NCBI GenBank assembly: GCA_965219685.1
Contig: CBDCOH010000002.1
Span: 1,344,001 to 1,408,000, forward strand
Direction: 5' to 3'
Length of the DNA: 64,000 nucleotides
Source of the DNA: Candidatus Spongiisociaceae bacterium
GTDB taxonomy: Bacteria; Actinomycetota; Acidimicrobiia; Spongiisociales; Spongiisociaceae
Below the pieces are notes generated by a model that was given only the letters and a program-made list of their open reading frames with translations, was not told the origin of the DNA and made no database searches. Each line of letters begins with the position of its first letter. Position 1 is the first letter of the stretch. The position numbers were made by a program, and so were the translations under genes. This document shows, one piece after another, positions 12,113-63,848 of the stretch.

Positions 12113-12294
12113 GTTTCTCACGATACCCGGCGTGCGGGACATAGGCGTACACGGTATCTCGCGGCGCCAAGTCCGGTTGGAGACCGTCGCATCCACCAGA
12201 CTCGAAGCAGGGGAGGATCACCAGAGGGCGTTCGTGTCACATGCTGCCCTTAAGATGCCCGGATCATGAGGTCCTGCGAGATGGTGATTGCCGG

Positions 12295-12582
12295 ATGAGT
12301 TCGATTCACGAGGCTGCGTTCGAGGCTCACATCGTCGGATGGCTGGTAGAGCACGGCGGCTACCGGCGGGTGAAGACCACCAGCGAGGGCTACGAGTCCG
12401 ACTTCGACGGTAGTGCCGGGGTGGACACGGCCGACCTGTTCGAGTTCATTGCCGCCACCCAGGCCGAGCAGTGGGACAAGCTGGTGGACTCCGGCTACGG
12501 CGGGCATCCGGTCGTCGATAGGGCGAAGTTAGTGCAGCAGTTGGATTCTCAGCTCGACAAGCGCTATCACGAGGGCCCGTGA
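12295..12582 (+). pseudogene. Truncated duplicate of the hsdR 5' end
   Basis: About 90 aa collinear with the HsdR N-terminus (EAAFEAHI...HGGYRRVK...SEGYESDFDG...QLDKR), then YHEGP-stop. Confidence 0.9.
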
Positions 12583-12613
12583 CCGGGGATTTGGACGGAA
12601 GGAAGGCGCGAGC

Positions 12614-16944: not shown

Positions 16945-17541
16945 CGGAAGCGCACAGATGGTCGACAACACACCGGCCGATGCCCCAACACAGTCCCTCG
17001 GTATGTACGAGCAACAACCATCCTCCCTTTATCACAACCTGCGTATGCCGTATCGGACCTGTTCGCAAGGGATCTAGTCAGTGACAGGCTTCCGGCCATG
17101 TCGAATGGCACATGGGCTAGTACGGCGAGGTCGCTCGGCCTCTCCGGCGGGCCGCTGAGGTCACGACCTCGGCAACTGACGACTAGCCATCTGCGCCAAC
17201 CGCCCTGCTCCCGTAAGTCTGGGAAGTAGACGCCTTACGGCTACTCGGTGCCTGTGGCTGAATCCCGGCTTCGGCCCAATACGCTGACACCGACCTACCC
17301 ACAGAACCAAGCCCCCACCTCGGGACAGCATCACGCCACCATTGGGCTCTCACAGTCTACGAAGAGGACGCTGACCAGCCATGCAACGCGGTCCTCACCT
17401 ACGGAGTCGCCGCCAGTGGCTAACATGGTCAAACCGGCCGTGCAACTGCGCGATTCGAGACGCGACAGGTGCGGCGGATGCGATCCGAACGAGTATGTTT
17501 GAAGATCCGCGGTCTTCCTCCCGGCGAAAGGATCGGTAACA

Positions 17542-31072: not shown

Positions 31073-31149
31073 GTGGTCTGTCTGTGAAATCGCGGTGTGG
31101 TATGCCGATGGTCGCCCGAGCACACCGAGCTGTTTCGCAGACAGACCAC
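31073..31149 (-). mobile_element. Internally deleted copy of a MITE/REP-like inverted-repeat element
   Basis: Ends GTGGTCTGTCTGTGAAAT ... TTTCGCAGACAGACCAC; reverse complement matches both ends of 45333-45496 and 51443-51605. Confidence 0.75.
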
Positions 31150-32051
31150 TAGGCGCTCAGCTTGTAGAGGCGGGCGGCGGTGCCTCCCATGATCGCGGCC
31201 AGTTCCTCGTCCGGGAACGGTTCGGTGCCCCGTTGCTCGGCGACATCGTTGACCCTCCGGTAGAGCTCCGGGACCGCCGCGAAGTCTCGACCGATCCGGA
31301 TCTTGTCGCTGTTGTCCGATCCGTACATGGCCCGGTCGGTCGCCACGTATGACCTCAGCATGTCCAGGGCGTCATGGAGGGGCTCGGGCGTTCCCCCGGC
31401 GAAGTGACAGAGATCGGCATGGAAGTTGGGATGCTTCGCCACCATCAGTATCCCTTTGGTCACCCAGGGCCAGTTGATGACGACGATGACCTTCAGGTCG
31501 CGGAAGCGCCGTCCGACGCCGTCCAGCAGGAACGGATCGCCCATCTCCAAAGACGCGTTGATGATGGGGGTCCACCCCGTGAAGAAATGCACCGGGATGT
31601 CCAGCTCGATGGCCTTCTCGTACAGCGGGTCCAGGGTGCGGTCGTTCGGAGAGTAGAGCTGGTAGCTGGGGACAAGCTTGAGAGCCCGGAAGTCCAGCTC
31701 CTTCACACACCGTTCCAGTTCCTCGACCGCCCAGGGGATGCCACGCATCGGGTCGATGCATGCAACGCCCTTCAGCCGGTCCGGGTACAGGGCGACCTGG
31801 TCGGCCGTGTAGTCGTTCGGTACGTACACCTCGTACTCGTCGGGATGGTCGGGATGGAACGTGGTGCGCCGGATGTCGCTCCCCTGCACCATCCCGATGT
31901 CGATACCCGAGGCGTCGAGGAGATCGACCATCCACTCACCGTCGGTGTTGCCGTACTCGCCGCCGTACGGCCTGTACAGCTCCTGCATCCACCAGTGCGG
32001 GACCTGCTCCGGCACCTCGGTGAGGTGTAGATGGCAATCTACCGTGACCAT
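31149..32051 (-). CDS. Amidohydrolase_2 family protein, paralogue 2
   Basis: MVTVDCHLH, QGSDIRRTTFHPDHP, VHFFTGWTP, YGSDNSDK. Confidence 0.9.
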   Translation of the reverse strand: MVTVDCHLHLTEVPEQVPHWWMQELYRPYGGEYGNTDGEWMVDLLDASGIDIGMVQGSDIRRTTFHPDHPDEYEVYVPNDYTADQVALYPDRLKGVACIDPMRGIPWAVEELERCVKELDFRALKLVPSYQLYSPNDRTLDPLYEKAIELDIPVHFFTGWTPIINASLEMGDPFLLDGVGRRFRDLKVIVVINWPWVTKGILMVAKHPNFHADLCHFAGGTPEPLHDALDMLRSYVATDRAMYGSDNSDKIRIGRDFAAVPELYRRVNDVAEQRGTEPFPDEELAAIMGGTAARLYKLSA

Positions 32052-35386: not shown

Positions 35387-36289
35387 CTACAGGCCGAGCT
35401 TGTACAGCTGGTTGGCGGTGCCGCCCATGATGGCCTCCATCTCGTCGTCCGAGATTTCGGCGGTGCCCCGCTTGGCGGCGACCTCGTTCACGGCGTAGAA
35501 CAGCTCTGGGACGGTCGCCACGTTCTTGCCGATCCTGATCTTGTCGTTCCCGTCCGATCCGTACAGGGCGCGGTCGATGCAGCCGAAGTCCTTGATCTTC
35601 AGCAGCGCGTCGTAGAGCTGCTCCGCGCTCCCCCCTCCGAACCACGCCAGGTCCATGTAGAAGTTGGGATGGCGGGCGGCAACGGCGATCCCCTCATCGA
35701 TCCATGGAAACGCCAGGTAGAAAACGACCTTCAGGTTGCGGAGCTCCCTGCCCACGTCGTCCAGCAGGATCGGGTTCGAGTACTTCATGGGAGCGTTGAT
35801 GATCGGCGTCCACCCGGTGAAGAGGTCCACGGGAACGTCGAGTTCGATGCACTTCTCGTAGAAGGGATACACCCGGCGGTCGTTGATGGCGTGGTCGTGG
35901 TAGGCGGTCTTCAGGGCCAGGGCCACGAACCCGTGCTCCTTGATGAAGTACTCGGTCTCGGCGAGGGCGTCCTGCGGATCGCGCAGCGGATCCACCGCCA
36001 CCTGGCCCCGGAGCCGGTCCGGGTGCTTCGCCACCTCCTGGGCGATCCACTCGTTGGGGATGTACACCCCGTGGTCGCCGGGATGGTCCGGATGCGAGGT
36101 GGTGCGCCGGATGTCGCCGCCTTGGACGATCGCGATGTCGATCCCGGCGTCGTCGATCATGTCCACGATGTCCTGGCCGTACCGGGAGACGCCCGTGCCC
36201 CCGTACGGCAGGTACATCTCCTCCATCCACCACTTGGGAACCTGGCTCGGCGTCAGACCGATGTAGTGATGGCAGTCGACGGTGACCAT
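35387..36289 (-). CDS. Amidohydrolase_2 family protein, paralogue 3
   Basis: MVTVDCHHY, QGGDIRRTTSHPDHP, VDLFTGWTP, YGSDGNDK; GAGGAG RBS before ATG 36289. Confidence 0.9.
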   Translation of the reverse strand: MVTVDCHHYIGLTPSQVPKWWMEEMYLPYGGTGVSRYGQDIVDMIDDAGIDIAIVQGGDIRRTTSHPDHPGDHGVYIPNEWIAQEVAKHPDRLRGQVAVDPLRDPQDALAETEYFIKEHGFVALALKTAYHDHAINDRRVYPFYEKCIELDVPVDLFTGWTPIINAPMKYSNPILLDDVGRELRNLKVVFYLAFPWIDEGIAVAARHPNFYMDLAWFGGGSAEQLYDALLKIKDFGCIDRALYGSDGNDKIRIGKNVATVPELFYAVNEVAAKRGTAEISDDEMEAIMGGTANQLYKLGL

Positions 36290-36457
36290 GTGGGTGCTCC
36301 TCGTTCGGATTGCTGAGCTCGCTTGGCGGGGTGGCTCGCTCCGGGACGGTAGTAGCAGCGGATGGCTGGTCAAAAGGTCACGCGTGCTGACGATCGATCC
36401 GCGATCCCTCCGTACTCGATCCGGGATCCCACCAGCAAGGTGGCATAGAATCCCCCT

Positions 36458-36874
36458 ATGCGTACCGGTCTGGATGTCGAGGAATTGGGTGACCTGCTCG
36501 ATCGTCCACTTCTGGCGACGCTCGCGACCTATCGCCGGGATGGCCTCGTCCTGCTGTCGCCCGTGTGGTTCGAATGGCGGGAAGGCGGGTTCAACATCGC
36601 CATCGGCCGCAACGATGTGAAGGCAAGGCATCTCAGGCGTGACCAGCGGGCGTCGGTCGTGGTGGCGGAGGCCGAACCGCCGCTAGGCGGTCTCGAGATA
36701 CGCGGTCGCGCCCGGCTGCTGCCCCAGGATCCCGATGTCGATCGCCGAATCGTCGAGCGTTACATCGGCGCGGCCAAGGCAGACGAGTACCTGGCCACCC
36801 TACCTCCGGGGACGCTCGTCCGGCTCGAGCCCGGCGAGCTCCGGGCCTGGGACTTCGCCGACGAACACCACTGA
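36458..36874 (+). CDS. PPOX-class (pyridoxamine 5'-phosphate oxidase-like, probably F420-binding) protein
   Basis: ATLATYRRDG..LSPVWF, KARHLRRDQRASVVV. Confidence 0.85.
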   Translation: MRTGLDVEELGDLLDRPLLATLATYRRDGLVLLSPVWFEWREGGFNIAIGRNDVKARHLRRDQRASVVVAEAEPPLGGLEIRGRARLLPQDPDVDRRIVERYIGAAKADEYLATLPPGTLVRLEPGELRAWDFADEHH

Positions 36875-37049: not shown

Positions 37050-37922
37050 CTACGCGCTGATCCGGAATAGCTCCGCAGCCGTGTCGCCCATGATCCCGGC
37101 CATTTCCTCATCGGTGATCTCGGTTTCCTGGCTGCGGGCGATCTCACGGGCGTCCCGGTAGAGGTCCCTGGCGTCCGAGTTGTCGGAGCCGAACACCACC
37201 CGGTTGATGGCGCCGAGCTCCTTGAGCTTCGAGAGGGCGCCCGCCAGGACCTCGGGACCCCAGGCGGTCCATCCCGCCATCTCGGCGTAGAAGTTGGGGT
37301 GCTTCGCGACGACCGCTACCCCTTCGTCCACCCACGGGTAACCGAGATGCGCGACGATGACCTTCAGATCCCGGTAGCGACGTCCGACGTCGTCCAGCTG
37401 GATCGGGTCCTGGAACTCCATCGCCGAGTTGATGGTGGCTGTCCATCCGGTGTGGATCATCACCGGTAGATTCAGCTCGAGGCACTTCTCGTAGAGCGGG
37501 TCCAGCCGCCGGTCCTTCGGGTTGTAGTGGTGGTAGGTGGGCACGAGCTTCAGCAGCCGGAAGTCCAGTTCCTTGACGCACCTCTCCAACTCGAGCACCG
37601 CCGCCGGGATGTCCCGGAGGGGATCCATCGCCGCCACCCCGTAGAGACGCCCGCCGGATTGGGCGACCTGGCGGGCGACGTAGTCGTTGGAAACGTAGAC
37701 GCGGCGGTCGTGAGGATGATCGGGGTGGTAGGTGGTGCGGCGGATATCCCCACCCTGGATCATGCCGATGTCGAATCCCGTGGCATCCAGGTGCTCGATG
37801 ACCGCAGGACCATCCACGGAACCGACTTCCCATCCCCAAGGCGCGTACATCTCCCGCACCCACCACTCGGGGGCGTGCTCGGGCACCTCGGTTACATGCA
37901 GGTGACAATCGATCGTTACCAC
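37050..37922 (-). CDS. Amidohydrolase_2 family protein, paralogue 4 (canonical metal ligands)
   Basis: IDCHLH, MIHTGW, VAHLGYPW, FGSD. Confidence 0.92.
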   Translation of the reverse strand: MVTIDCHLHVTEVPEHAPEWWVREMYAPWGWEVGSVDGPAVIEHLDATGFDIGMIQGGDIRRTTYHPDHPHDRRVYVSNDYVARQVAQSGGRLYGVAAMDPLRDIPAAVLELERCVKELDFRLLKLVPTYHHYNPKDRRLDPLYEKCLELNLPVMIHTGWTATINSAMEFQDPIQLDDVGRRYRDLKVIVAHLGYPWVDEGVAVVAKHPNFYAEMAGWTAWGPEVLAGALSKLKELGAINRVVFGSDNSDARDLYRDAREIARSQETEITDEEMAGIMGDTAAELFRISA

Positions 37923-37925
37923 TGG

Positions 37926-38831
37926 TCAGCCCCCCAATCCGTACAGCCGCGCTGCGCTACCACCCATGATCGCCGCCATCTCCTCGTCCGTGAACGGCTC
38001 GGCCTCTCGCTCGCGGGCAACCCGGTTCACGCTGCGGTACACGTCCGGCACGGTGGCCTCCGTCCGGCCGACGCGCACCTTGTCGCTGTTGTTCGATCCG
38101 TACAGCACCCGGTCGAGCGCCGACAGCGAGCGGAACCGGTCCAGCACCTCGAACAGCGGCTCGGGCCCGAGTTCGGCGTAGTGGTACATGTCGCCGTGGA
38201 AGTTGGGGTGTTTCGCCACCAGCAGAATGCATTGGTCGATCCAAGGATCGGCCATCGAGATGATCACTTTGAGGTCGCGGAAGCGACGGCCGACCTCGTC
38301 GAGATGCACCGGATCGGCGTTTTCGAGTCTGGCCATGATGATCGGGGTCCATCCGGTGAAGAAGTGGGCCGGGATGCCCAGTTCGATGCACTTCTCGTAG
38401 ATGGGATCCAGCCGCCGGTCGTTCGGTGAGAAGTGCAGGTACGAACCGAGCAGCTTGAGGGCGCGAAAATCCAACTCGTTGACGCACCGATCGAGTTCTT
38501 CCAGGGCCGCGCCCATATCCCGGATCGGGTCGATGCACGCGACACCCTTCAACCTGTCCGGGAAGAGTGCCACCTGCTCGGCCGTGTAGTCGTTGGGAAC
38601 GAACACGTCGTGCTCGGTGGGATGGTCCGGACTGTAGGTCGTCCGCCGCATATCCCCGCCCTGGACCAACCCGACGTCGACACCAGAACGGTCCAGGAGG
38701 TCGACGATCCACTGCCCGTCATAGTTGGCCAGAGCCCCTCCCCCGTACGGTCGGTACATCTCCGTCAACCACCATTCGGGTATCTGGCTCGGGACCACGC
38801 CGAGGTGCAGATGACAGTCGACGCTGACCAC
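37926..38831 (-). CDS. Amidohydrolase_2 family protein, paralogue 5
   Basis: VDCHLH, QGGDMRRTT, AHFFTGWTP, YGSNNSDK. Confidence 0.9.
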   Translation of the reverse strand: MVSVDCHLHLGVVPSQIPEWWLTEMYRPYGGGALANYDGQWIVDLLDRSGVDVGLVQGGDMRRTTYSPDHPTEHDVFVPNDYTAEQVALFPDRLKGVACIDPIRDMGAALEELDRCVNELDFRALKLLGSYLHFSPNDRRLDPIYEKCIELGIPAHFFTGWTPIIMARLENADPVHLDEVGRRFRDLKVIISMADPWIDQCILLVAKHPNFHGDMYHYAELGPEPLFEVLDRFRSLSALDRVLYGSNNSDKVRVGRTEATVPDVYRSVNRVAREREAEPFTDEEMAAIMGGSAARLYGLGG

Positions 38832-48429: not shown

Positions 48430-49608
48430 TCAGCAGTCCAGGAGCGACGCTCCGCAGCCGGCGAACGCATCATCGAGCAAGCTGGTGTCGATCATCGCTT
48501 CGGGACTGGGAAGGTTCTCGATGCCGGTCAGGCCCAGGACGTCCCACATGGTGGACGCCATGAGATCGAAATCCATCTGGAACAGGCCTTTCTCGTCGGT
48601 GAGGCTGCTCGTCATCAGAGGCACCTGAGCGTCATGGACGGGCCGCTGGAACGAGATGTCCATGCCGAGCTCGGCCCCGCCCCACTTGTTCATCATGAGG
48701 TCGATGGCGGTGTCGGGATCGGCGAAGGCCGCTTCCCAACCCTTGATCATCGCCCGCAGGAACCCCACCATCGCATCGCGGTTCTCGTCCAGGAAGCTGC
48801 GGTTGACGAATGCCAGGTCGTGGTACATCTGCATGCCGAGTTCGGCATAGGAGACGGCCACGTTGTCGACACCCATGAAGTCGAGGATGACGGGGTGGCT
48901 GTTCATGTAGTTGATCTGGCCCCGCACCAAGCCTTCGGCCACCGGTGACGGATCGAAGCCGACCGGGACCATGTCGTAGCACCCGGCTTCCAGCCCGTTG
49001 AGGACCAGCAGGGCATCGAGCTGGACTATGTCACCGGGGGTGGCGCCGATCTTGCTGCCGCAAATGTCGCTCGCAACCAGGATCGGGTCGGAGGCCAGGG
49101 AACTGATCCCCAGGATGCCCTCCTGCAGCCTGGTACCGAAGATCACGAATTCGTCGCCCTGTGACACCGCATCGGCGATGATGGCCAGACCGCCGAAGCC
49201 GATGTCCGCAGCTCCCCCGGCCAGGATCTGGACGGGGTGTGGGACGTTCGGGCCCCCGTACTCGAACTCGGGCGCCACGTTCTCATCGGCGAAGAACCCC
49301 AGTTCGTCCGCCATGTACAGGCCCAGGAACCCAGGATCTGCCGTCCAGTTGAGCCGGACCCGGATAACGGTCGGCTCCATGGGAGCTTCGGTGGTCGGCG
49401 CCGCGGTCGTCTCCGGAGCGGCGGTCGTAGCCGGCGCAGCGGTCGTGTCCGGCGCTGCCGTCGTGGCGGGCGCCGCGGTTGTCGCGGGCGCTGCGGTCGT
49501 GGCGGGCGCTGCGGTCGTGGCGGCAGGCTCGTCGTCACCACACGCGGCGGCCAGCAAGGCCAGCACGAGGATGACCCCGCCCAATCGTGATCTGGATGAG
49601 TACTGCAA
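48430..49608 (-). CDS. ABC substrate-binding lipoprotein, NMT1/THI5 family (paralogue of 34117-35292)
   Basis: AGGAGG then TTG 49608; lipobox LAAAC; AAPATT repeats; LNWTADPGFLG; both paralogues end GCGxSLLDC. Confidence 0.88.
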   Translation of the reverse strand: MQYSSRSRLGGVILVLALLAAACGDDEPAATTAAPATTAAPATTAAPATTAAPDTTAAPATTAAPETTAAPTTEAPMEPTVIRVRLNWTADPGFLGLYMADELGFFADENVAPEFEYGGPNVPHPVQILAGGAADIGFGGLAIIADAVSQGDEFVIFGTRLQEGILGISSLASDPILVASDICGSKIGATPGDIVQLDALLVLNGLEAGCYDMVPVGFDPSPVAEGLVRGQINYMNSHPVILDFMGVDNVAVSYAELGMQMYHDLAFVNRSFLDENRDAMVGFLRAMIKGWEAAFADPDTAIDLMMNKWGGAELGMDISFQRPVHDAQVPLMTSSLTDEKGLFQMDFDLMASTMWDVLGLTGIENLPSPEAMIDTSLLDDAFAGCGASLLDC

Positions 49609-49706
49609 AGGGTGCCTCCTACAACGCATGCGCCTTAAGTCTGCCACCCTGTCTCCCCGAATGGGAATGCGATCCGGCGCGAATCCGATGGGATCCCGGA
49701 ACGGTC

Positions 49707-51431
49707 TCAGAGCATCCGCTGCTGGCCGCGTTCCTCGAGCCGGCTGGCCCCTACGTACACGACGACCGACAGTACGACTATCACAACTGCAGAACCCCAG
49801 GCCCGAGGCATTTCGAGACCGGCATAGGAGATGGCGAAGAGCCACCCGAGTCCGTCGCGGCCGGTGAGGAACTCTCCCAGGATGGCGGCGACGATCGCCA
49901 GGGCCCCGTTCAGCCGAAGGGCGGTGAGCAGGTCGGGCACCGCAGACGGCAACGCCAGGTGGCGCAGCCGGGCATGCCGTCGCGCTCCCATGACCGAGAA
50001 GACATCGTCGGCACCAGGAGGGGTGGAACGGAAACCGGAACTGACCAGAACGAACGTCGGGAACATCGACACCAGGGCGGCCACCGCCACGACGGTCGTC
50101 CGCGTGTAACCGATCACCCTGGCCATGATCGGCACGGTCGCCACCAGCGGCACCGAGTACATGATGATCATCGGCGTGGTAAGCATTCCCTTCAGCACCG
50201 GAGACAGCCAGCCGGCCAGTGCCACTGCCAGCCCGATCAGGCTTCCGACCGCCAAGCCCACCGCAGCCATCTGCAGCGTATTGAACGTGTATTCGAGGTA
50301 GGTACCCGGGTCGGCGGCGATGTCGCTCACCACCGACGAGGGGGTCGGCGCCACTATGGGACTCACCTCCCAAACCGTGACCGCGAACTGCCAGAAGCCG
50401 ATGACGACGACGAACGGCCACACCGTGAGGGCGATGTCGCCCACTCGCCGGCGCCAAGAGGGGGACTCCCCGTGCCCCTCCGTCGATCCGCCGGTACCCG
50501 CCAACTCCCTGACGTCTTGGCGCACCGAGAAGTCACGACGCCGGACCAGTTCCTCTATCAAGGCGAGGAACCCGAAGGCCACGATCGCTATGAACGCGGT
50601 GAGCCCGGCCGCGGCCCACAGCCTGGCCGTGAAGAACTGCTGGAGCGCGACGACCATCACCAGGCCCAGTCCCGGCTCGGTCGTGCCGAACCACTCGCCG
50701 AAAACGACGCCGAACATGGCGGCGGGAGCGCCGAGCTTGGCCGCGTACACGATCGAGGGCAACACCGCCGGCATCTCGAGCCTCCAGAACCGGCCGGTCC
50801 TGGAAGCGCCCAGAACGGTGAACACATCCTGGTGGGACCGGCTCACGAGGTTGAAGCCGGAACTCACCGCGATGAAGCTCGAGAAGAACACCGCCAGGCT
50901 CGCGAAGACCAGCGGGGTCGCGGACGACGAGACCACCATGACGATGAGCGGACCGAGAGCGATCCAGGGAATGGAGTTGACGACGGTGGCAAGGCGACCG
51001 ATTCCCCGCCGGAGCGGGGTGATGAGCAACCCGACGATGGCCAGGGAGACGCCCAGTGCCATTCCGGCGGCGAAGCCTCTCACCGCGTCCCAGATCGTGC
51101 CTATGCCGGCTCGCCAGAGTATCTCCCTGTCATCGGAGAGAGACTTGAGAACATCGGAAAAAGGCGGCCAACCCCTACCGAACGCCTCGGCTTGGCCGAC
51201 CAGTTCCCAGGCGGCGAGGAGGACCGCGACGCCCCCGATCCCCAGAACGGCTGATCGCCAGCCCGATATGTCCTTTGCGGGGATGGCTAGGCGCCCTTCG
51301 ATCGACCGGAGCCGGTGCCGCTCCGGCAGTCCGTACCCGACCACCGTCGACCCGGTCGTGACGATGACAAGGCCACCACCGCTAGTCCTGTGCGGCCGAA
51401 ACCGAACCCTCCGGTTGCCATGTCCGATCAT
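49707..51431 (-). CDS. Fused double ABC permease (two NitT/TauT TM domains)
   Basis: N-half matches 32312-33079 (NSIPWIALGP, GEWFG) and C-half matches 33079-33915; start uncertain. Confidence 0.85.
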   Translation of the reverse strand: MIGHGNRRVRFRPHRTSGGGLVIVTTGSTVVGYGLPERHRLRSIEGRLAIPAKDISGWRSAVLGIGGVAVLLAAWELVGQAEAFGRGWPPFSDVLKSLSDDREILWRAGIGTIWDAVRGFAAGMALGVSLAIVGLLITPLRRGIGRLATVVNSIPWIALGPLIVMVVSSSATPLVFASLAVFFSSFIAVSSGFNLVSRSHQDVFTVLGASRTGRFWRLEMPAVLPSIVYAAKLGAPAAMFGVVFGEWFGTTEPGLGLVMVVALQQFFTARLWAAAGLTAFIAIVAFGFLALIEELVRRRDFSVRQDVRELAGTGGSTEGHGESPSWRRRVGDIALTVWPFVVVIGFWQFAVTVWEVSPIVAPTPSSVVSDIAADPGTYLEYTFNTLQMAAVGLAVGSLIGLAVALAGWLSPVLKGMLTTPMIIMYSVPLVATVPIMARVIGYTRTTVVAVAALVSMFPTFVLVSSGFRSTPPGADDVFSVMGARRHARLRHLALPSAVPDLLTALRLNGALAIVAAILGEFLTGRDGLGWLFAISYAGLEMPRAWGSAVVIVVLSVVVYVGASRLEERGQQRML

Positions 51432-53895: not shown

Positions 53896-53929
53896 GGTCG
53901 GCGGCTGCTGGCCCGTGGGCGGTGACCCG

Positions 53930-54922
53930 ATGAGCGCCAACCGCTCCTACCGGGAAGAGGATCGTGCTGTCGAGGTCGACGGCGCAACGCTGGCCGGGAC
54001 GCTCGCCCTCCCCACCACGGAGGGCCCGTGGCCCGTGACGCTCCTCCTGGGAGGCACGTTCTCGGATCTGAGGGATGCTGATGTGGATCCCAGGCTGTGG
54101 CCGGGGGTGCCCAGGCGCGGCATGTACGCGATCCTCGCCCGCGGGCTGGCGGAGGCGGGCATCGCCTCGTTCCGCTTCGACCGCAGGGGCGCCGGCGAGA
54201 GTACGGGAGAGTTGGGCGTCGAGCGCGCCCAGGAGGTCGCTGACGCCGGGACCGTGTGGCGATGGGTCAGGTCCCTTCCGGAGTGCAACGGCAGGGCGGC
54301 CATGCTGGGCCACAGCGCCGGCGCCTACGTGCTGTGCCGGGTGGCGCACGAAGTGGGCCAGCCCGACGCGGCGGTGCTCCAAGGCGCCCTGTACCGCACG
54401 ATCGCCGAACTCCTCGAATACAACTACCGCCTGGTACGCGACTACCTGGGCCTCGGGGAATCCGAGGCGGCATGGGTGAGGGAGAACTCCCCGAAGGCCT
54501 ACGAGGATGCGATGATGATGGACACCATCGTGGGGGCGATCGAGAACAGAGAGCCGCAGGCCGTTGCGGAGCTGAAGGGCGATAGGAGAACCCGTGACCT
54601 GTCGAGCCTGCGGTACGACCTGGACCTTCCTCCCGAGGAACAGTTCCGCCACCTGGCCGCCCCCGCCCTCGTGCTGCACGCCTCCGAGGACCTGAACGTC
54701 CCCGTGGAGGACGCCTTCGACACGGTCCGCGCCTTGTGGGCCGCCGGGAACCGGGACGTGGAGTTGAGGGTGGTCCCGGGCGCCAACCACTCGTTCCAAC
54801 TGGACGCCGAGGACTACGCCACCCGGGTGCGGGAGAAGATCACGATGAAGAACTTCGGGCGACCCTTCCATCCCCTCTATCCGAGAGTCGTGATCGACTA
54901 CCTGACAAGAACGCTCCTCTGA
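53930..54922 (+). CDS. Alpha/beta hydrolase
   Basis: LAGTLALP, FDRRGAGES, GHSAG, ASEDLNV, GANHSF. Confidence 0.9.
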   Translation: MSANRSYREEDRAVEVDGATLAGTLALPTTEGPWPVTLLLGGTFSDLRDADVDPRLWPGVPRRGMYAILARGLAEAGIASFRFDRRGAGESTGELGVERAQEVADAGTVWRWVRSLPECNGRAAMLGHSAGAYVLCRVAHEVGQPDAAVLQGALYRTIAELLEYNYRLVRDYLGLGESEAAWVRENSPKAYEDAMMMDTIVGAIENREPQAVAELKGDRRTRDLSSLRYDLDLPPEEQFRHLAAPALVLHASEDLNVPVEDAFDTVRALWAAGNRDVELRVVPGANHSFQLDAEDYATRVREKITMKNFGRPFHPLYPRVVIDYLTRTLL

Positions 54923-55045: not shown

Positions 55046-56470
55046 ATTAGCTCGCGATCCGTCACCTGCGACCTTCTCATCAGCGGCGGCGTGGTCGTCA
55101 CCGTCGATGACCGGCGTCGCGTGATCGATCCGGGCGTGGTGGCGATAACCGGAGACCGGATCGTCGGGGTCGGGAACCGGCACGACATGCGCCACTACCA
55201 CGCGGACCGGGTGATCGACGCTTCCGGTGCAGCGGTCCTACCCGGGCTCGTGGACACCCACCAGCACCTGTTCCAGTACCTGACCCGCGGTCTGGGCGAA
55301 GGTCTGGAGCTGTGGCCCTGGTTGTCCGACTTCATGTGGCCGGTGACCACCGCCATCTCCCCCGAGGAGGCGAGGATCGGCGCGCAACTCGGGGCTGTCG
55401 AGGCGGCCCGCTCCGGCGTCACCACGATCCTGGACAACCATTACGCCCCCACCGACTTCCAATCCACACTGGCCGTGGCCGACGCCATAGCCGCGGTCGG
55501 ACTGCGCGGTGCGGTTGCCAGGGGCATGACCGGGGAACTGACCGAGATGGCGGCCAAGCACGGCCTGGCCGGCGAGTTGTTCCGCTACTCCAACCAGGAG
55601 GAGCTCGACATCACCCGGGCCTGCATCGAGGCTCGTCCACCCGGCGCCCGCGTCGGCGTCTGGCCGGCCCCCCTCAACATCATCTACGTCGACCAGCAAC
55701 TCGTGGTCGATGCAGTAGGCCTGGCCCGCGAGACAGGCACCGGCTGGCACTCGCACTGCTCGGAGGCAGCGAACGACCCGGTCTTCTACCTGGAGGAATA
55801 CGACCGCAGGCCGGTCGAGTGGCTGGCGGAACAGGGCCTGTTGGACCGGCGAGCCACCCTGGCCCACGGGATCTTCCTGGATGACCGCGAGGTCGAACTG
55901 GTCGGGGACTCGCGGACCGGCATCGCCTACTGCCCCATCTCCCATCAGTACATCGCCTTGGGGGTGATGCGTCTGCGCGACCTCCGCAGGGCCGGCGCCA
56001 CCGTCGGCCTCGGTCTCGACGGGGGAAGCGGGCACCGGCTGGACATGTTCGCCTGCATGAAGCAGGCGGTCCTCCTGCAGCGGGTCCACACGCAGAACCC
56101 CACCGAGTCCAACGGTGAGGAGGCGATAGAGCTGGCCACCAGGGTCGGTGCCGAGTACATGGGGATCGAAGCCGGCGTGATCGCCCCCGGAAAGCTTGCG
56201 GACCTGGTGATCGTGGACCAGTCCGCTCCCCACCACGCGCCACTCCACCGCACGGTGGCATCGGTTGTCTACTCGACCAGTCCCTCCGACGTGACCCACA
56301 CGATCGTGGGGGGCGAGGTCATCTTCGAGAACGGGAGCTGCACCATGGTGGACGAAGCGGCGGTAGTGGAGGAAGCCAACGGACGGGCGGCCGACCTCGT
56401 GTCGCGGGCGGGGCTGACCTCCCTTCTCGAGCCTTGGCGTACAGCCCCGGCGGCTTCGGGCAAGGAGTGA
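55046..56470 (+). CDS. Metal-dependent deaminase/chlorohydrolase (SAH/MTA deaminase-like amidohydrolase)
   Basis: PGLVDTHQH, HSHCSE, LAHG, GKLAD. Homology to the paralogue extends 5' of GTG 55091 to an ATT codon at 55046. Confidence 0.9.
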   Translation: MSSRSVTCDLLISGGVVVTVDDRRRVIDPGVVAITGDRIVGVGNRHDMRHYHADRVIDASGAAVLPGLVDTHQHLFQYLTRGLGEGLELWPWLSDFMWPVTTAISPEEARIGAQLGAVEAARSGVTTILDNHYAPTDFQSTLAVADAIAAVGLRGAVARGMTGELTEMAAKHGLAGELFRYSNQEELDITRACIEARPPGARVGVWPAPLNIIYVDQQLVVDAVGLARETGTGWHSHCSEAANDPVFYLEEYDRRPVEWLAEQGLLDRRATLAHGIFLDDREVELVGDSRTGIAYCPISHQYIALGVMRLRDLRRAGATVGLGLDGGSGHRLDMFACMKQAVLLQRVHTQNPTESNGEEAIELATRVGAEYMGIEAGVIAPGKLADLVIVDQSAPHHAPLHRTVASVVYSTSPSDVTHTIVGGEVIFENGSCTMVDEAAVVEEANGRAADLVSRAGLTSLLEPWRTAPAASGKE

Positions 56471-56560: not shown

Positions 56561-56920
56561 ATGACTACTAAGACAAGATACTACAACGTTACCGGGCGGG
56601 ATTTCCTTACCAAGGCTCGGAGCTACCTAGCCGAGGGAGACCTGCTGCAAGCCTCCGAGAAAGGCTGGGGCGCTGCCGCCCAAATGGTTAAGAGCGTCGC
56701 CGAGGCCCGAGGATGGCCCCACAACGGGCATCACGAACTATGGCGTGTGGCCAACCGCCTCGTGGACGAGACCGGAGACCGGGACATTCGGACCGCATTC
56801 ACTGCTGCCGGCGCCCTGCACACCAACTTCTACGAAGGCTGGTTACCTCGCGAACACGTCGAGGACTGCCTTGCCCAGGTCGAGGAGTTGATCTCGAAGC
56901 TGGAAGCTCTCGCCGCCTAG
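56561..56920 (+). CDS. PaREP1-like (HEPN-related) protein
   Basis: GDLLQASEKGWGAAAQMVK...LHTNFYE. Confidence 0.8.
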   Translation: MTTKTRYYNVTGRDFLTKARSYLAEGDLLQASEKGWGAAAQMVKSVAEARGWPHNGHHELWRVANRLVDETGDRDIRTAFTAAGALHTNFYEGWLPREHVEDCLAQVEELISKLEALAA

Positions 56921-57186: not shown

Positions 57187-57337
57187 AACCCCCCTGTGCC
57201 TCGGGCTGTGCGCCCGGCTCGAACCCTGGCAGGGTCAAGTACCCTCACAGCCCACTGGTTCTCCGGCTTCAACCAATCTCCTGGGGTTGCCGCCAGGCAG
57301 GCCGGATGCAGAGAGTCGAGGCACGAGCGGGTAGGTT
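57187..57337 (-). ncRNA. Structured RNA candidate, 6S-like rod
   Basis: Nested pairings on minus: GTGCCTCG/CGAGGCAC, CCGGC/GCCGG, CCTGGCGG/CTGCCAGG, ATTGGTT/AACCAGT; motifs GGAG, CTTGAcCC..GGGTTCGAG, GGCAC. Confidence 0.4.
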
Positions 57338-57422
57338 CTGTACGGTTTGTGCCGACCCGGCGGTCTCTCGAAGCCACGGTGGCCAGCGCCGGGAGCAGTC
57401 AGTTGTCTGGAAAGGAAAACCG

Positions 57423-58388
57423 ATGGGCGAGATCGAAGCGACCTGGGACTTTCGCGACCCGTACCTGTGGATGCAGAAGACGGCGCGGAGCGCGTTGCCG
57501 CCTTTGATCATCACCGCGGCCATCAGCGGCGGCGGCCACGGTAAGGAGTCGAACGCGGCCCTGCCGGAGACGCCGGAGGAACAGGCCGCGGAGGCCCGCC
57601 GGGCGTACGAGGCCGGGGCCTCGCAGATCCACGTGCACGTGAGGGACCCGCAGGACTGGAGCCAGTGCAGTGGCAACCGGGAGGACTACGGGCGGGTCAA
57701 CCGGATGATCCGCGAGCAGTGCCCGGACGTGATCATCAACAACAGCACCGGCGGGGGCCCGACGCTAACCACCGAGGAGCGTTATTCGCCCCTGTTCGCC
57801 GATCCGGCGCCCGACGTGGCGACGCTCAATCTCGGACCCTTCGTCTCGCGCTTCACAATGCCCGAGAGGCCCGACCACCTGCCGCATCCACGGGGACCCG
57901 TCGAGTACGACATGTGCAGCGGGACGACCTACGGCGAGCTCAACCACTACGCCTCGGTGATCGCCGAGCGCGGCATGAAACCAGAATTGGAGATCTACGA
58001 CCCCGGCCAGTACTGGGTGCTCCGGGACCTCATCTACAACCAGAACGTGACCCCTCCCTACATGGTCCAGTTCGTCCTGGGCGCGCAGACGGCATCCTTC
58101 CCGACCCCCGCCAACCTCACGTCGCTCATCAGCGAGCTGCCCGCCGGAGCCCTGTTCTCGGTGATCGGGACGGGACCGTTCCAGATCCCGATGAACGTCC
58201 TGGGAATCCTCCTCGGCGGCCACGTGCGAGTGGGGCTGGAGGACAACATCTACTACCGGCGGGGAGAGAAGGCAACCGGTAACGCGCAACTGGTGAGCCG
58301 CATCCGGCGCATCGCCGAGGAGATGAACCGGGAGATCGCCACCCCCGCCCAGGCCCGCCAGATGCTCGACCTCCCGCAGGTCGCATGA
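57423..58388 (+). CDS. Beta-keto acid cleavage enzyme (BKACE/DUF849, Kce-like)
   Basis: IITAAISG, LPETPEE, AGASQIHVHVRD, STGG, KPELEIYD, GGHVRVGLEDN. Confidence 0.93.
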   Translation: MGEIEATWDFRDPYLWMQKTARSALPPLIITAAISGGGHGKESNAALPETPEEQAAEARRAYEAGASQIHVHVRDPQDWSQCSGNREDYGRVNRMIREQCPDVIINNSTGGGPTLTTEERYSPLFADPAPDVATLNLGPFVSRFTMPERPDHLPHPRGPVEYDMCSGTTYGELNHYASVIAERGMKPELEIYDPGQYWVLRDLIYNQNVTPPYMVQFVLGAQTASFPTPANLTSLISELPAGALFSVIGTGPFQIPMNVLGILLGGHVRVGLEDNIYYRRGEKATGNAQLVSRIRRIAEEMNREIATPAQARQMLDLPQVA

Positions 58389-58443: not shown

Positions 58444-59781
58444 GTGGTAGGCGCCGGTCCGCGCCGCCAGGTCCTCAACCTGGGTTCGTTCCCCGTCACC
58501 GATGTCCGGGCAGGCTCCGCCACGGCCCTGGCCGGCGGAGTGCTCACCGTCGACCTCGAGGAACTGGAGAGGATGCTGTCCGACGATCCCAACTTCGCCG
58601 CAGTCTCGGTGAGGATCGTCAGGCCGGGAGACCCGGTTAGGGTCATCAACGCCATCGACGCCGTCGAGCCGCGGATCAAGGTAGACCCCGTGGGCGCTGA
58701 CTTCTCGGGACTGCTCACCACGCCCCGGTTTGTCGGCCTCGGCACGACCCACGCCCTCAAGGGGGTGGCGGTGGTCGAGACCGCCCTTCCGGTGCCGGGA
58801 GAGCCCCGCTACTGGCGTGAGGCGATCTTCGACATGGCCGGACCCACCGCCAAGTACTCCCCCCTTTCCGAGCTTTTCAACGTGGTGGTCTCGTGCGAGC
58901 CCACCCGGGCCCTGCTGGAGAGCAGCGACCGGCCCACCAACGTCTTCGAGGGAACGCCGGAGGCGGTGGAGTACAACAAGGCGGTCCGGCTAGCGGGTCT
59001 CAGGGCGGCAACTTACCTGGCCGAGACAACCCTGGGGATGGAACCCGAGCGGTCGGACACCTACGACCTGGCCCCGTCACCCGCCGACGGCCTGCCGGCC
59101 GTCGTGTATCTGTACCAACTCGCCATCCCGTTCCTGCACGGCGAGATCGCTCCCGGCGCCGGCGCGATCGGCGGAGCGGCCCACCTTCCCACGCCGATCC
59201 ACCCGAACGAACTGCTCGACGGTGCGCTGGTGTGCGGCTGGAACGCCATAGCCTGCATGAGGGAGCTCACCTACACCGTGCAGAACCATCCCATCATCGA
59301 GGATCTGTACGCCCGCCACGGCCACGACATCGACTTCCGCGGCGTCGTGCTGTTCACCAACGGCGACACGCGCGCCGCCAAGGAGCGTTTGGCCAACCAC
59401 GCGGCCAACCTGGCGATCATGATGGGCGCCGAGGGGGCGCTGATCAACTACGCCGGAGGTGGGCATCCCGCCGTCGACGCCATGATGATCTGCAGGAATC
59501 TCGAGCGGCGGGGAGTGACGACCACGATGCTGTCCATGGAGATGGCCGCCAATCCCGGCGAGTCCGGCTTCGTCCACTTCGTCCCGGAGGCCGATGCCAT
59601 CGTGAGCACCGGGAACTACGAGGAGACGGTCCCGTTCGAGCCGGTGGAGCAGGTCATCGGGGGTGACGCGATGATCCAGATCGAAAGCGACCCAGCCGGC
59701 GCGTTCGAAGCCCCATTGGCCATCGTCATGGCCAGCACCCACCAGTTCGGCGGAACACACATACGAGGCGAGGAGTACTGA
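58444..59781 (+). CDS. Glycine/sarcosine/betaine reductase component B proprotein (GrdE-like)
   Basis: DAVEPRIK, GTTHALKGVAV, LPTPIHPNELLDGALV, IACMRELTY.VQNHPII..LY, ADAIVSTGN. Confidence 0.85.
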   Translation: MVGAGPRRQVLNLGSFPVTDVRAGSATALAGGVLTVDLEELERMLSDDPNFAAVSVRIVRPGDPVRVINAIDAVEPRIKVDPVGADFSGLLTTPRFVGLGTTHALKGVAVVETALPVPGEPRYWREAIFDMAGPTAKYSPLSELFNVVVSCEPTRALLESSDRPTNVFEGTPEAVEYNKAVRLAGLRAATYLAETTLGMEPERSDTYDLAPSPADGLPAVVYLYQLAIPFLHGEIAPGAGAIGGAAHLPTPIHPNELLDGALVCGWNAIACMRELTYTVQNHPIIEDLYARHGHDIDFRGVVLFTNGDTRAAKERLANHAANLAIMMGAEGALINYAGGGHPAVDAMMICRNLERRGVTTTMLSMEMAANPGESGFVHFVPEADAIVSTGNYEETVPFEPVEQVIGGDAMIQIESDPAGAFEAPLAIVMASTHQFGGTHIRGEEY

Positions 59782-59790: not shown

Positions 59791-61116
59791 ATGGCCAAGA
59801 TCGTCCACTATCTCAACCAGTTCTTCGGAGGGATGGGCGGCGAGGACCGCGCCGGCACCGGCCCGGTCTCCCAACCCGGTCCGGTGGGAACGGGCCGCGG
59901 ACTGGCCCGTCTCCTGGAGGCCGACCACCGGATCGTGGGGACGGTGATCTGCGGCGACAACTACATGGCACAGGGAGGGGCACCGGCCGTCGACGAGGTG
60001 GTCGAGTTGATTTCCGGGTTCGGTCCGGATGTGGTGGTCGCCGGGCCGGCCTTCGGATCCGGGCGGTACGGCCTGGCCTGCGGTGCGGTCTGCCGGGCGG
60101 TGACCGACCGGCTCGGCATCCCGGCCGTGACGGGGCTCCACGCCGACAGCCCGGGCGCCGCCGAGTGCCGGGCATGGGTTCCGATTCTCGCCACTGCCGA
60201 GACTGCCGCAGGCATGGGTGTCGCGCTCGAGAACCTCGCCCGGCTGGCCATGAAACTCGCACGCGGTGAGGAGTTGGGGAGCGCCGACGAAGAGGGGATT
60301 CTCACCAGGGGCCTTCGCCGCAACAAGTTCGAAGACCTGCGCGGATCGACCAGGGCGATCGAGATGCTGCTCTCCAAGATGCGAGGGGAGCCTTTCAGGA
60401 CGGAGTGGCCACTCCCCCGCTACGAACCTGCGGAACCTTCCGAGCCGATAGAAAGGGGCGCCCCCTTCCGGCTGGCACTGGTAACCGAGGCGGGGATCGT
60501 CCCGGCGGGAAACCCCGACCGGCTGCCATCCGGTTGGGCGACCGACTGGATGACCTACACGATCCACGACCGGGACGGCTTCGCGGAGGGCGAGTTCGAA
60601 TCGGTCCATGGCGGTATCGACACCAGCTTCGCCAACCGTGATCCCGATCGCCAGGTTCCGCTCGATGTGGCCCGATCGATGGAGCAGGAGGGCCGGTTCA
60701 GCCTCCATCCCGAGCTGCTCAGCACAACGGGAAACATGGGCACCCTCCGTGACATGACCCGCATCGGTGCCGAGATGGGACGCGCGTTGATCGCCGACGG
60801 CGTTCAGGCCGCCATCGTCGGTTCCACCTGAGGGACGGGGACGCGTAGCGGGTCTACGCTTGCGAAGTCGATCGAGAACCAGGGCGTTCCGGCCGCCCTG
60901 GTTACGGCGCTGGTACCGCTGGCGGAGTCGGTGGGGGTGCTGCGAATCGTCCAGGGCAAGGCCGTCACCCATCCGTTCGGCGACCCGACCCTCGAGGCCG
61001 CCGACGAACTCACGTATCGCAGGCTGGTGGTCGAGACCGCCATCACCGCTCTGGAAACGAACGTGGCGGAACCCACGGTGTTCGAAGTAGGAGATCGAAC
61101 GGCCGCGGTGGGGTAA
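59791..61116 (+). CDS. grdB: Glycine/sarcosine/betaine reductase selenoprotein B family (Sec at UGA 60829-60831), 441 aa
   Basis: KIVHYLNQFFGGMGGED, AGPAF.SGRYG.AC, ALVTEAGIVP.GNPD, VHGG.D, DPDR.VPLD, TGN. Homology continues in frame past the UGA (GST-U-GTGTRSG.TLAKSIE..GVP...HPFGDP) to TAA 61114-61116. Symbol is family-level; substrate unknown. Confidence 0.9.
60843..60859 (+). promoter_or_regulatory. Bacterial SECIS element
   Basis: 17-nt hairpin GCGTAG-CGGGT-CTACGC starting 11 nt after the UGA, with a G-rich apical loop. Confidence 0.75.
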
Positions 61117-61157: not shown

Positions 61158-62303
61158 ATGATGTACACAAGCTCACCCAGGCACCACAACGGAGCTTCTT
61201 TCTGCTTGGCGTGAGAGGAGTCGGCAAGAGCACTTGGGCGCGCTCCGTGCTGCCGGACGCATTGCGCCTCGACCTGCTCGACGAGGCGCTGTTCACCGAC
61301 CTGCTGACCGACCCGTCACTATTCGCAAGGCTTATCTCCGGGCGACACAGCGGTCAGTGGGTGGTGGTGGACGAGATACAGCGGATACCGAGCCTGCTCA
61401 ACGAGGTGCACCGCACATCGAGGAGAGCGGTATCCGGTTCGCGCTGCTGGGTTCGAGCGCCCGCAAGCTGAAGACCGCCGGGACCAACCTCCTGGCAGGC
61501 CGAGCCCTGCGCAAGGTGATGTACCCGCTCACCGCTGCCGAACTCGGCGACGACTTCGACCTCGACCAAGTGCTCCAGTACGGCACGATCCCACTCGTCT
61601 GGGTCTCGGATGAGCGCCGCGAGGCGCTCGAGAGCTACACCCAGCTCTACCTGCGGGAGGAGATCAGGGCCGAAGCGGTGGTGCGGAACCTGGCCGGATT
61701 CGTACGGTTCCTGCCAATCGCCGCGCTGATGCACGCCCAACTCGTGAACGCGGCCGGCATCGCACGTGACGCCGGTGTCGCCCGATCCACGGTCAATGGC
61801 TACTTGGAGATCCTGGAGGACACTCTCGTGGCCACCCGGCTACCGGCGTTAGACACCAAGCTTCGGGTACGTGAGCGTCGGCGACCGAAGCTCTACTGGG
61901 TGGATCCCGGCCTGGTAAGGGCCATCAAGCGACGCCTCGGGACGGTGGCCTCTGAGAAACCGGGCCCGCTCTTGGAAGGATGGGTGTTCGGCACCCTCCG
62001 GGCCCACGCCGAACACCACCATCTCTACGACGACATCGCATACTGGGCCCCGGCCCAGTCGCAGACCGAGGTCGTTTCGTCCTCACCCGCGACGGAAGGC
62101 ACCTCGCCATCGAAGTCAAGGCCGCTCGGCGCTACCACACGTCCATGGTCAAAGGCCAGCGGGCCATCGCGGATCTGGCAGGACTGACCCGCCGCATCCT
62201 GGTCTACACCGGCCCGCACACCTTCCGCACGAACGACGGCATCGAGGTCTGGCCTCTCACCACCTTCCATGAAGTCATCGCCGAGGACCGCCTCTGGCCC
62301 TGA
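61158..62303 (+). pseudogene. Frameshifted AAA_14/DUF4143 ATPase
   Basis: GVRGVGKST/VVDEIQR, LLGSSARKL...PKLYWVDPG and AIEVKA lie in different frames (shifts near 61180, 61415 and 62075). Confidence 0.8.
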
Positions 62304-62444: not shown

Positions 62445-63848
62445 CTAACGCCTCCAAGGGGTAAGGAGGCCATGCAGGCCGGCCCGGTCGATGAGGTCTT
62501 CGGAGCGGGATTGCGCCTCCTCCATGACCTCGTCCTCGTCGACCATGGTGCAGCGGCCGTTCTCGAGAACGATCCGGCCGTCGATGATGGAGTGGACCAC
62601 GTCAGAGCCCCGGGCACAGTAGGTGAGCGCCGAGACGGTCCGGTGCCAGGGCGTCAGGTGGGGACTCTTCATGTTCACGACGATCAGGTCGGCCAACTTG
62701 CCGGGGGCGATCACTCCGGCCTCGATGTTCGCGTAACGGGCACCCTCCCTCGTCGCCATCTCCAGAGCCTCCTCACCGTTGCTGATGGTCGGCTCCAGGG
62801 TGTGCACGCGTTGCAGGAGGATGGCCTGCTTCATCACCTCGAACATGTCCTGGCGGTGGTTGCAGCACGGTCCGTCGGTACCGAGGCCGATCGGAGCGCC
62901 GGACGCGCGCAGTTCGCGCAGTCTCATCACCCCGAGAGCGATGTACTGGTGGGAGATCGGGCAGTAGGCGATTCCTGTCTCTGTCTCGCCCACATGGTCG
63001 ATCTCGGCGTCATCCAGGTAGATACCGTGGGCGATGGTCGCCTCGGGTCCCAGCAGGCCTTCCTTGTACAGCCACTCGACCGGCCGGATGCCGTACTCCT
63101 CGAGGTAGGTCGGCGGATCCTCCAGACGCTCCGAGCAGTGGGTGTGCCACCCGACCCCGCCCTCGCGGGCCAGCGCCACGCTGCGCCGGACCAGGTCCTG
63201 GTCGTTGTAGATGATGTTGAGCGGCGCCGGCCAGACCTCGACCCGCCCACCGGCCGGGTACTCCTCCATGGCGGTGCGGGTGATCTCCATCTCCTCGTCG
63301 TTGGTGTAGGAGAAGAGTTCCCCGGCGAGGTTGTACCGGCGGGCGATGTCGGTCGCCTCGCCGGTGATCCCCCGCGCCACGGCACCCCGCAACCCCACCT
63401 CTCCGATGGCGCCTGCCACGGCCAGGGTGGTGTCGAGATCCGACGGCGCGTAGTGGAGATCGACAACGGTGGTGGTACCGGCCTTGAGCGCCTCCACCGC
63501 TCCCAGCCTCGCTCCGATCCGGCCTTCCTCCAGGTTGATGGAGATCGAGAACGGCCACATGAAGTCGGTCAGCCAGGTCCACAGCGGCATCCCCTCACCG
63601 AGGCCGCGGGCCAGGCCTTGGAACAGGTGGTTGTGGGTATCGATCAACCCGGGGAGGACGGCGGACCCGGAGCAGTCGATGGTGCGCGCTGCCCGGTATC
63701 CGGCCATGTCCTCGTCGGAGCCGACCGCCACGATGCGGTTGCCCGACACCGCGACGGTTCCCGGATCGATTACCCGGCGCTCGTCGTCGACGGTCACCAC
63801 GGAGCCTCCGGTCAGGAGGAGGTCGCACTCTCGGTTTGTCTCGTTCAT
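62445..63848 (-). CDS. Metal-dependent deaminase/chlorohydrolase, paralogue of 55046-56470
   Basis: PGLIDTHNH, HTHCSE, IAHG, GTDG; VWPAPLNIIY and CPISHQYIALG shared with the paralogue. Confidence 0.92.
   Translation of the reverse strand: MNETNRECDLLLTGGSVVTVDDERRVIDPGTVAVSGNRIVAVGSDEDMAGYRAARTIDCSGSAVLPGLIDTHNHLFQGLARGLGEGMPLWTWLTDFMWPFSISINLEEGRIGARLGAVEALKAGTTTVVDLHYAPSDLDTTLAVAGAIGEVGLRGAVARGITGEATDIARRYNLAGELFSYTNDEEMEITRTAMEEYPAGGRVEVWPAPLNIIYNDQDLVRRSVALAREGGVGWHTHCSERLEDPPTYLEEYGIRPVEWLYKEGLLGPEATIAHGIYLDDAEIDHVGETETGIAYCPISHQYIALGVMRLRELRASGAPIGLGTDGPCCNHRQDMFEVMKQAILLQRVHTLEPTISNGEEALEMATREGARYANIEAGVIAPGKLADLIVVNMKSPHLTPWHRTVSALTYCARGSDVVHSIIDGRIVLENGRCTMVDEDEVMEEAQSRSEDLIDRAGLHGLLTPWRR

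Follow-up and report, generated by a model that had tools for sequence, protein, structure and literature searches.

A predicted GrdB-family selenoprotein with UxxGxxS in place of UxxCxxC in Candidatus Spongiisociaceae

In the window (the whole stretch of 64,000 nt that was analysed), the gene at 59791..61116 (+) encodes a B subunit of the GrdB/F/H family (PF07355, TIGR01918). Its in-frame TGA at 60829..60831 is almost certainly read as selenocysteine (U347), helped by an overlapping SECIS hairpin, as judged from comparison of related sequences. The hidden Sec is real, yet routine in the GrdB/F/H family. Loss of CxxC had also been described before. The novelty lies in a broad, intact branch that lacks these cysteines and occurs in unexpected hosts. 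It has specificity motifs of its own, its operons are without grdD, and in the nearest group a gene for a beta-keto acid cleavage enzyme (BKACE) is a fixed neighbour.

Read-through of UGA and the overlapping hairpin

Under translation table 11, the open reading frame 59791..60831 is closed by the TGA. Reading this codon as U gives a protein of 441 aa, in which U347 is followed by 94 codons (60832..61116) ending with TAA at 61114-61116. The earlier note had proposed that the frame runs on past the stop at 60831 with homology to the GrdB C-terminus, and profile searches bear this out. The part before the TGA covers the entire PF07355 model and positions 1-345 of TIGR01917 and TIGR01918, and the 94 aa that follow pick up directly after, matching positions 347-431 of 431 in these two models (E 3.6e-21 and 1.4e-20, respectively). 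A scan of GTDB genomes for related loci provided 79 loci, taken from the best 80 of 266 confirmed stretches and thus a sample of near relatives. Within this sample, TGA occupies the Sec site in 79/79 loci and is followed by 76-110 open codons, and TAA, TAG or Cys was found there in none. Among the best 120 protein matches, 116 end at the residue directly before the TGA; two others are cut or shifted otherwise, and two (P0065 and P0066) read W across it, which we read as a gene-calling artefact of UGA=Trp. Alternation of U and C, which the earlier note suggested looking for in an alignment of homologues, was seen neither in the 79 loci of this sample nor in the best 120 protein matches, in line with the few or no Cys homologues of GrdB described in the accessible part of PMC1794560. 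Cys forms are confined to distant homologues, most of them shorter. Cys (or Thr) stands at the Sec position of P0162, P0166, P0201, P0212, P0213, P0220, P0235 and P0260, with the motifs CxxSxxC, CxxGxxC, CxxSxxS and TxxGxxS, so that erosion of the motif recurs within the family.

Comparison of the window with 12 close relatives gave dN/dS of 0.10-0.21 after the TGA in 12/12 pairs and of 0.12-0.23 before it, and the C-terminal segment is under purifying selection. In the AlphaFold model of the B subunit (29 sequences, mean pLDDT 88.8), the pLDDT is 89-98 per 10-residue block across residues 341-430. U347 lies between a strand (340-344) and a helix (348-363) that starts right after it, and the segment behind the TGA is predicted to contribute both strands and helices to the domain that holds U347, completing the second alpha/beta domain. 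Sequence searches of the PDB with the GrdB-like and GrdE-like proteins gave no match, and Foldseek with the B-subunit model returned generic alpha/beta binding-protein folds alone, at TM about 0.2.

The hairpin that the earlier note took for a SECIS element, 17 nt long and 11 nt past the UGA, was found at 60843..60859 (+). It reads GCGTAG-CGGGT-CTACGC, with a 6-bp stem overlapping the Ser codon AGC and a 5-nt loop, CGGGU, that starts 17 nt past the UGA; the spacing is presumably comparable to that of the minimal SECIS of E. coli fdhF. The bare 17-mer folds with -6.2 kcal/mol, and with flanks the MFE is -7.6 to -10.8. For 60840-60866 a z-score of -1.85 was obtained, with 10 of 200 shuffles folding equally well, and windows of 49-72 nt gave z about 0. 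Folding energy by itself is therefore weak evidence for the hairpin. The criteria for bacterial SECIS elements given in the accessible text of PMC13188914 are a loop of 3-9 nt, a stem of 4-16 bp, G within the first two loop positions, a spacing of 16-37 nt and an MFE <= -7.5. The window hairpin agrees with this model in loop (5, beginning CG), stem (6) and spacing (17), and in MFE only with flanks.

The main evidence comes from covariation. Across the stem, 97.1% of cells are paired in 34 of 80 sequences, a value reached by 0/500 shuffles in a test that the kinship of the sequences inflates; controls slid along the alignment paired at 13-58%. The pair 19-27 is A-T in 31/31 Ser-type sequences and T-A (48) or T-G (1) in 49/49 Cys-type sequences among the 80 listed. 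The Ser codon is AGC in all 31 and is partnered by a synonymous T two codons on, whereas the Cys codon is TGC in all 49 and is partnered by A (48) or G (1). At such third positions elsewhere in these genes, T and A occur at only about 7-8% each. The matching partner bases of AGC and TGC indicate that the Cys-to-Ser change is compensated in the RNA stem, and the covariation lifts the hairpin above chance. The swap offers a clean case of a protein change offset in an overlapping RNA structure.

If the TGA were a real stop, the gene would be truncated or decaying, or its downstream part would be made separately, a possibility raised in the earlier note. No Sec machinery is seen in the window, the hairpin is weak when judged by energy only, and in the accessible part of PMC6778437 a paralogue without UxxCxxC is termed a likely pseudogene. 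Past the TGA, the frame offers its first start 33 codons on, a GTG at 60931 with GGAG just 5' of it; however, translation from this start would miss the most conserved stretch, since these 33 codons span the conserved motif region, and 13/13 clade sequences agree in all of its first 12 residues. The dN/dS values alike on both sides, the absence of TAA and TAG at this site in the 79 loci drawn from the best 80 of 266 stretches, and the strong covariation of the SECIS stem also stand against a stop. Decay or separate synthesis of the downstream part can thus hardly be correct, and read-through is retained as the explanation.

Loss of both cysteines and its distribution

The window protein scores well above the cut-off with PF07355 (392 bits vs 22) and with the broad subfamily model TIGR01918 (430 vs 65), and it stays below the cut-offs of the GrdB (TIGR01917, 416<602), GrdF (NF040794, 430<800), GrdH (NF040795, 371<775) and PrdB (TIGR04483, 58<300) models. 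Its Sec-bearing domain is homologous to that of PrdB of D-proline reductase; however, PrdB is a protein of about 240 aa with UxxC, and no prdA accompanies the window gene. The window proteins are about 42-43% identical along their whole length to glycine reductase GrdB/GrdE and sarcosine reductase GrdF/GrdG, with which they share the Sec position and the SECIS layout, and related loci have GrdA and GrdC partners. They differ from these systems in the lost CxxC, the altered specificity motifs and the lost Cys242 of the partner, and their branch differs in the lack of an adjoining grdD and in a shorter GrdC. Specificity motifs of GrdB and GrdF have been published (PMC9751293, accessible part). 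The GrdB motif matches L081 and L083 and the GrdF motif L080 only, and neither is found in the window protein, whose substrate loop is PSGWA instead of QSASA. Together, the scores below cut-off, the changed specificity motifs and a partner without the pyruvoyl cysteine suggest that the substrate is likely different from those of GrdB, GrdF and GrdH.

The active-site peptide, 60820..60852 (+), is GST-U-GTGTRSG, UxxGxxS replacing UxxCxxC. The alignment with four references from a plasmid collection (L080, annotated GrdF; L082, annotated GrdH; L081 and L083, GrdB-motif proteins) gave TST-U-GTCTRCG for all four, so the contrast with GrdB/F/H drawn in the earlier note was seen again. Other cysteines of the GrdB-like protein include C97 and C101. 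In the 79 listed loci plus the window, UxxGxxS occurs 30 times, UxxSxxS once, UxxGxxC 41 times, UxxSxxC three times and UxxCxxC five times; one or both cysteines are thus missing in 75/80 listed sequences with a conserved UGA. The window protein belongs to a group of 13 (73-91% identity, support 100), all named members of which belong to Acidimicrobiia, among them several Ca. Spongiisociaceae, a sponge-associated family. GxxS was further listed in Dehalococcoidia, Tectomicrobia/Entotheonella and Nitrospinota, and GxxC in Gaiellales and other Actinomycetes. Both phylogenies were built as quick trees. In the motif-masked tree, which took in 49 of 85 rows, a branch with support 69 sets the 22 GxxS rows apart from the others, the Acidimicrobiia group has support 100, and two changes are required at each cysteine position. 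With branch support of just 69, a single GxxS origin is neither shown nor rejected. As to GxxS being a conserved group, as the earlier note asked, the 30 of 80 listed sequences and the well-supported Acidimicrobiia group speak for it.

Sec was kept and both thiols were lost, as the earlier note had stated. The different chemistry that it took this loss to imply does not follow, because the CxxC cysteines are described as protective (accessible parts of PMC10838667 and PMC6778437), so that their loss alone need not mean new chemistry, and because there is the precedent of FarB, which 'lacks the conserved CxxC' (PMC10838667, same part). In strain DCMF, a B component without UxxCxxC was termed a likely pseudogene, and UxxCxxC serves there as a filter between functional enzyme and pseudogene (PMC6778437, accessible part). 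In many relatives, Ala or Gly takes the place of the Ser of the STUG motif (60823-60825 in the window). This Ser has been proposed as a carbonyl precursor (PMC10838667, as far as accessible); a Ser-derived carbonyl is unlikely here, given the Ala or Gly at that position in many relatives. A literature search, with subscription journals mostly outside its reach, found nothing on the GxxS group or on grdD-less operons, and the accessible parts of PMC3091704, PMC9768040, PMC12674515, PMC11706023 and bioRxiv 2022.07.06.499078 hold nothing on the GxxS group.

Partner subunit, Grd relay and gene neighbourhood

The gene at 58444..59781 (+), which ends 9 nt before the grdB-like start, encodes a GrdE/G/I-like partner (PF09338). 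The pyruvoyl peptide of C. difficile GrdE begins at residue 242, Cys242, and the role of the pyruvoyl group in substrate binding is debated (PMC9908766, accessible part). In the alignments, the column of GrdG Cys242 holds Asn267 in the window partner; the second cysteine (Cys246 equivalent) is retained. Of the four references, three have the pyruvoyl Cys and the GrdH partner lacks it. It is absent from all GrdE-like ORFs at the listed Ser-type loci (0/22), all rows at GxxC loci (0/40, two of them extracted poorly) and those at the listed CxxC loci (0/5). Since Cys242 is missing at GxxS, GxxC and CxxC loci alike, lack of processing in the partner is a general trait of this sample, independent of the loss of CxxC, which counts against a link between pyruvoyl loss and GxxS. 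At 59233-59256, the partner has C-x6-C (C264, C271), identical in 13/13 close relatives, where GrdG has C-x3-C; these two thiols might stand in for the lost cysteines of the B subunit.

No homologue of grdA, grdC, grdD, trx, trxB, grdX or a BCCT transporter was found in the window. GrdA with the canonical C-F-V-U (CxxU) lies within 10 kb at 8/31 listed Ser-type loci, and GrdC at 7/31. One of these is L008, an Acidimicrobiia relative at 82% identity, where GrdA and a GrdC scoring above the NCBIfam cut-off are near the Ser-type grdB, and grdA is a second UGA gene; among the 13 close relatives, it alone shows grdA/grdC linkage. With a canonical CxxU GrdA adjoining Ser-type loci, a new acceptor is unsupported where the acceptor is visible, and the different acceptor suggested in the earlier note was set aside. 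Since the operons lack grdD, the step after GrdB may differ. Near grdC, it was found at 0/48 listed non-reference loci, 45 of which have >=3 kb downstream, and at 3/3 references. These 48 loci (among L008-L079) carry grdC and grdA, with trx at 41, and no adjoining grdD. Their GrdC has a tail of 12-22 residues past the conserved motif, as against 46-49 in the references, and is shorter by about 30 C-terminal residues than in the three grdD-bearing references. The operon grdE-grdB(UxxGxxC)-grdC-trx-grdA was seen at 40 listed loci of Gaiellales and other Actinomycetes (L016-L079), where it is unexpected, often with tRNA-Gly(TCC) next. At eight Dehalococcoidia loci (L039-L041, L045-L048, L053), the UxxGxxS grdB is an orphan: grdE, grdA and grdC are all missing within 10 kb, and the genes that come next, for a flavin amine oxidoreductase and Zn-dehydrogenases, lie on the opposite strand. 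With regard to Sec machinery, Rfam (at gathering threshold) and ARAGORN gave no match on the window, ARAGORN found no tRNA-Sec in 60 of the 79 listed loci, and SelA/SelB/SelD motifs, searched in all loci and the window, matched once, for SelD in reference L083.

Directly 5' of the grdE-like gene lies the BKACE gene (57306..58388, +; PF05853), the true start of which is probably 57384 or 57399. It precedes grdE at 13/13 loci of the Acidimicrobiia clade and at 0/67 other listed loci, and no BKACE subfamily profile reached its cut-off. Conserved context further includes a deaminase-like amidohydrolase (55091..56470, +; PF01979), whose cluster occurs at 11 listed Ser-type loci, an alpha/beta hydrolase (53915..54922, +; 6 listed Ser-type loci), for which a thioesterase role is a guess, and an ABC transporter permease with an NMT1/THI5-like binding protein (48430..51431, -; PF09084 at 48433-49431, PF00528 on the L007 homologue). 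Further members of the gene cluster are amidohydrolases, a nitrilase, a cupin, a GcvT-like demethylase, NMT1/THI5-type ABC transporters and CoA-dependent enzymes; the window contains an acyl-CoA ligase, an enoyl-CoA hydratase and a 3-hydroxyacyl-CoA dehydrogenase. At L012, the gene after grdB encodes a choline sulfatase (588 bits, cut-off 433), and L013 has a homologue of it. This gene content points to catabolism of small N-containing compounds, with no particular substrate named. A search of the + strand gaps separating the genes gave neither a sigma-70-like promoter nor a terminator-like site.

Several other features of the window were recorded. An ATPase-like gene with a visible P-loop motif (61211-62303, +) is split over three overlapping frames; its L001 homologue is one ORF of 382 aa, and the window copy is probably frameshifted. 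There are five Amidohydro_2 paralogues (1-765, 31149-32051, 35387-36631, 37050-37922 and 37926-38831), and a deaminase-like amidohydrolase at 62445-63848 besides the one at 55091-56470, with several NMT1/THI5 ABC transporters in the same window. A bacterial gene of the ERG4/ERG24 sterol-reductase family is located at 3768-4988 (+), the region 5149-19215 encodes a Fic protein, type I restriction-modification subunits and a GmrSD nuclease, and a PaREP1-family gene (56561-56920) has the amidohydrolase on one side and BKACE on the other.

Candidate reactions and their meaning

In the established pathway, Sec attacks the alpha-carbon, and the resulting carboxymethyl selenoether passes via GrdA to protein C (PMC10298544 and PMC13188914, accessible parts). 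We infer that the window enzyme probably keeps this canonical Sec/GrdA path and acts on a substrate that brings its own leaving group. It is proposed that the Sec347 selenolate would attack the alpha-carbon of a substituted acetyl compound, X-CH2-CO-, releasing X, and that the C2 unit would be handed to an ordinary GrdA (CxxU), from which GrdC would then take it off. The two lost cysteines would be accessory and protective and lie outside the catalytic path. As the partner is unable to form the canonical pyruvoyl group, the substrate would probably need no Schiff base and would carry its own good leaving group, candidates being a quaternary or heteroaromatic N, a sulfonium or a halide, as with betaine and fluoroacetate reductases. 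In the Acidimicrobiia cluster, the substrate would probably come from the adjoining BKACE, to judge by gene linkage. Against this explanation count the lack of a selA/B/D motif or tRNA-Sec in the window and in the non-reference loci examined, the absence of grdA, grdC, grdD and thioredoxin from the window, and the eight listed Dehalococcoidia Ser-type loci without grdE, grdA or grdC within 10 kb.

The betaine-reductase, CoA-thioester and haloacetate alternatives are special cases of this explanation or overlap with it. A divergent betaine reductase of the GrdH/GrdI type, fed by carnitine or choline breakdown, would form trimethylamine along with acetyl phosphate, and its grdD would be encoded elsewhere in the genome. 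GrdH/GrdI belong to the same family, with the same Sec position and an unprocessed partner, which the window partner resembles. The choline sulfatase at L012 and its homologue at L013, the GcvT-like demethylase of the cluster, and the BKACE and 3-hydroxyacyl-CoA dehydrogenase of the window would also suit this reading; carnitine breakdown runs through BKACE- and 3-hydroxyacyl-CoA-dehydrogenase-type enzymes. However, GrdH (L082) keeps UxxCxxC and the window protein does not; the latter falls far below the GrdH model (371<775), stands apart from GrdH in the trees and has PSGWA in its loop instead of QSASA. The GrdH/GrdI reference operon has trxB, grdC and grdD, no match to a BCCT transporter exists in the window cluster, and carnitine dehydrogenase models score far under cut-off, so that this reaction is considered possible but unlikely. 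Somewhat less likely still is a CoA thioester, X-CH2-CO-SCoA, made by BKACE, from which GrdC alone would yield acetyl-CoA without GrdD or acetyl phosphate. GrdD carries the acetyl-thioester Cys, and the absence of grdD at the 48 listed grdC loci, the short GrdC tail, the FabH-like Cys kept in GrdC (PF08545; weak FabH match, E 0.26) and the acyl-CoA ligase, enoyl-CoA hydratase and 3-hydroxyacyl-CoA dehydrogenase of the window are consistent with such a route, although grdD may sit elsewhere in these genomes, the BKACE linkage is confined to the Acidimicrobiia clade while the absence of grdD is wider, and the alpha/beta hydrolase could cleave the thioester first.

A reductive dehalogenase for haloacetates is improbable. 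Its model would be FarBE of Cloacibacillus porcorum MFA1, a GrdB paralogue with Sec and SECIS and without CxxC, with a partner lacking the pyruvoyl-forming cysteines (PMC10838667, accessible part). Both departures, the missing CxxC and the missing processing cysteine of the partner, are shared by the window proteins, FarB being compared by description. Unlike FarE, the window partner keeps the second cysteine (Cys246 equivalent), and its FarE score of 134<675, under GrdG's 224, makes it no FarE orthologue by profile. No farA/farC-like gene is present among the scanned neighbours, no radical-SAM or MFS gene among the scanned window ORFs (part of all ORFs), and the hosts differ. Very doubtful is a stand-alone Sec peroxidase or redox protein outside the Grd relay. 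The orphan copies at the eight listed Dehalococcoidia loci and the absence of grdA and grdC from the window fit it, and the accessible part of PMC3091704 cites a paper whose title names a peroxidase activity of GrdB. Yet the lost thiols are exactly the resolving ones, the grdE partner is retained in 13/13 close relatives, and the gene is placed in a catabolic cluster with transporters. Moreover, GrdC matches P0292, P0272 and P0295 pair with clade GrdB P0035, P0018 and P0030, which hints at unlinked co-occurrence. The canonical Sec/GrdA path on a substrate with its own leaving group hence remains the preferred reading.

For the family, the result means that a UxxCxxC filter would throw out a large intact branch (75/80 listed sequences), and that CxxC, GxxC and GxxS form a natural series in which the role of these cysteines is directly testable. 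The branch is hosted by uncultured Acidimicrobiia, Dehalococcoidia, Tectomicrobia and Gaiellales, which are not classical Stickland fermenters, and with grdD-less operons in such hosts the branch may use a new substrate and could even form a new end product. The boldest form of this idea, rather unlikely as it stands, is a GrdD-independent Grd branch in Actinomycetota, Chloroflexota and Tectomicrobia, in which the Sec subunit without thiols would displace the leaving group of a CoA-activated substituted acetate from BKACE, GrdA would take up the C2 unit, and a shortened FabH-like GrdC would yield acetyl-CoA in place of acetyl phosphate. If true, the released acetyl-CoA would replace that used by BKACE, and selenium-dependent C-X cleavage outside Stickland fermenters would gain a new product and a new class of substrate.
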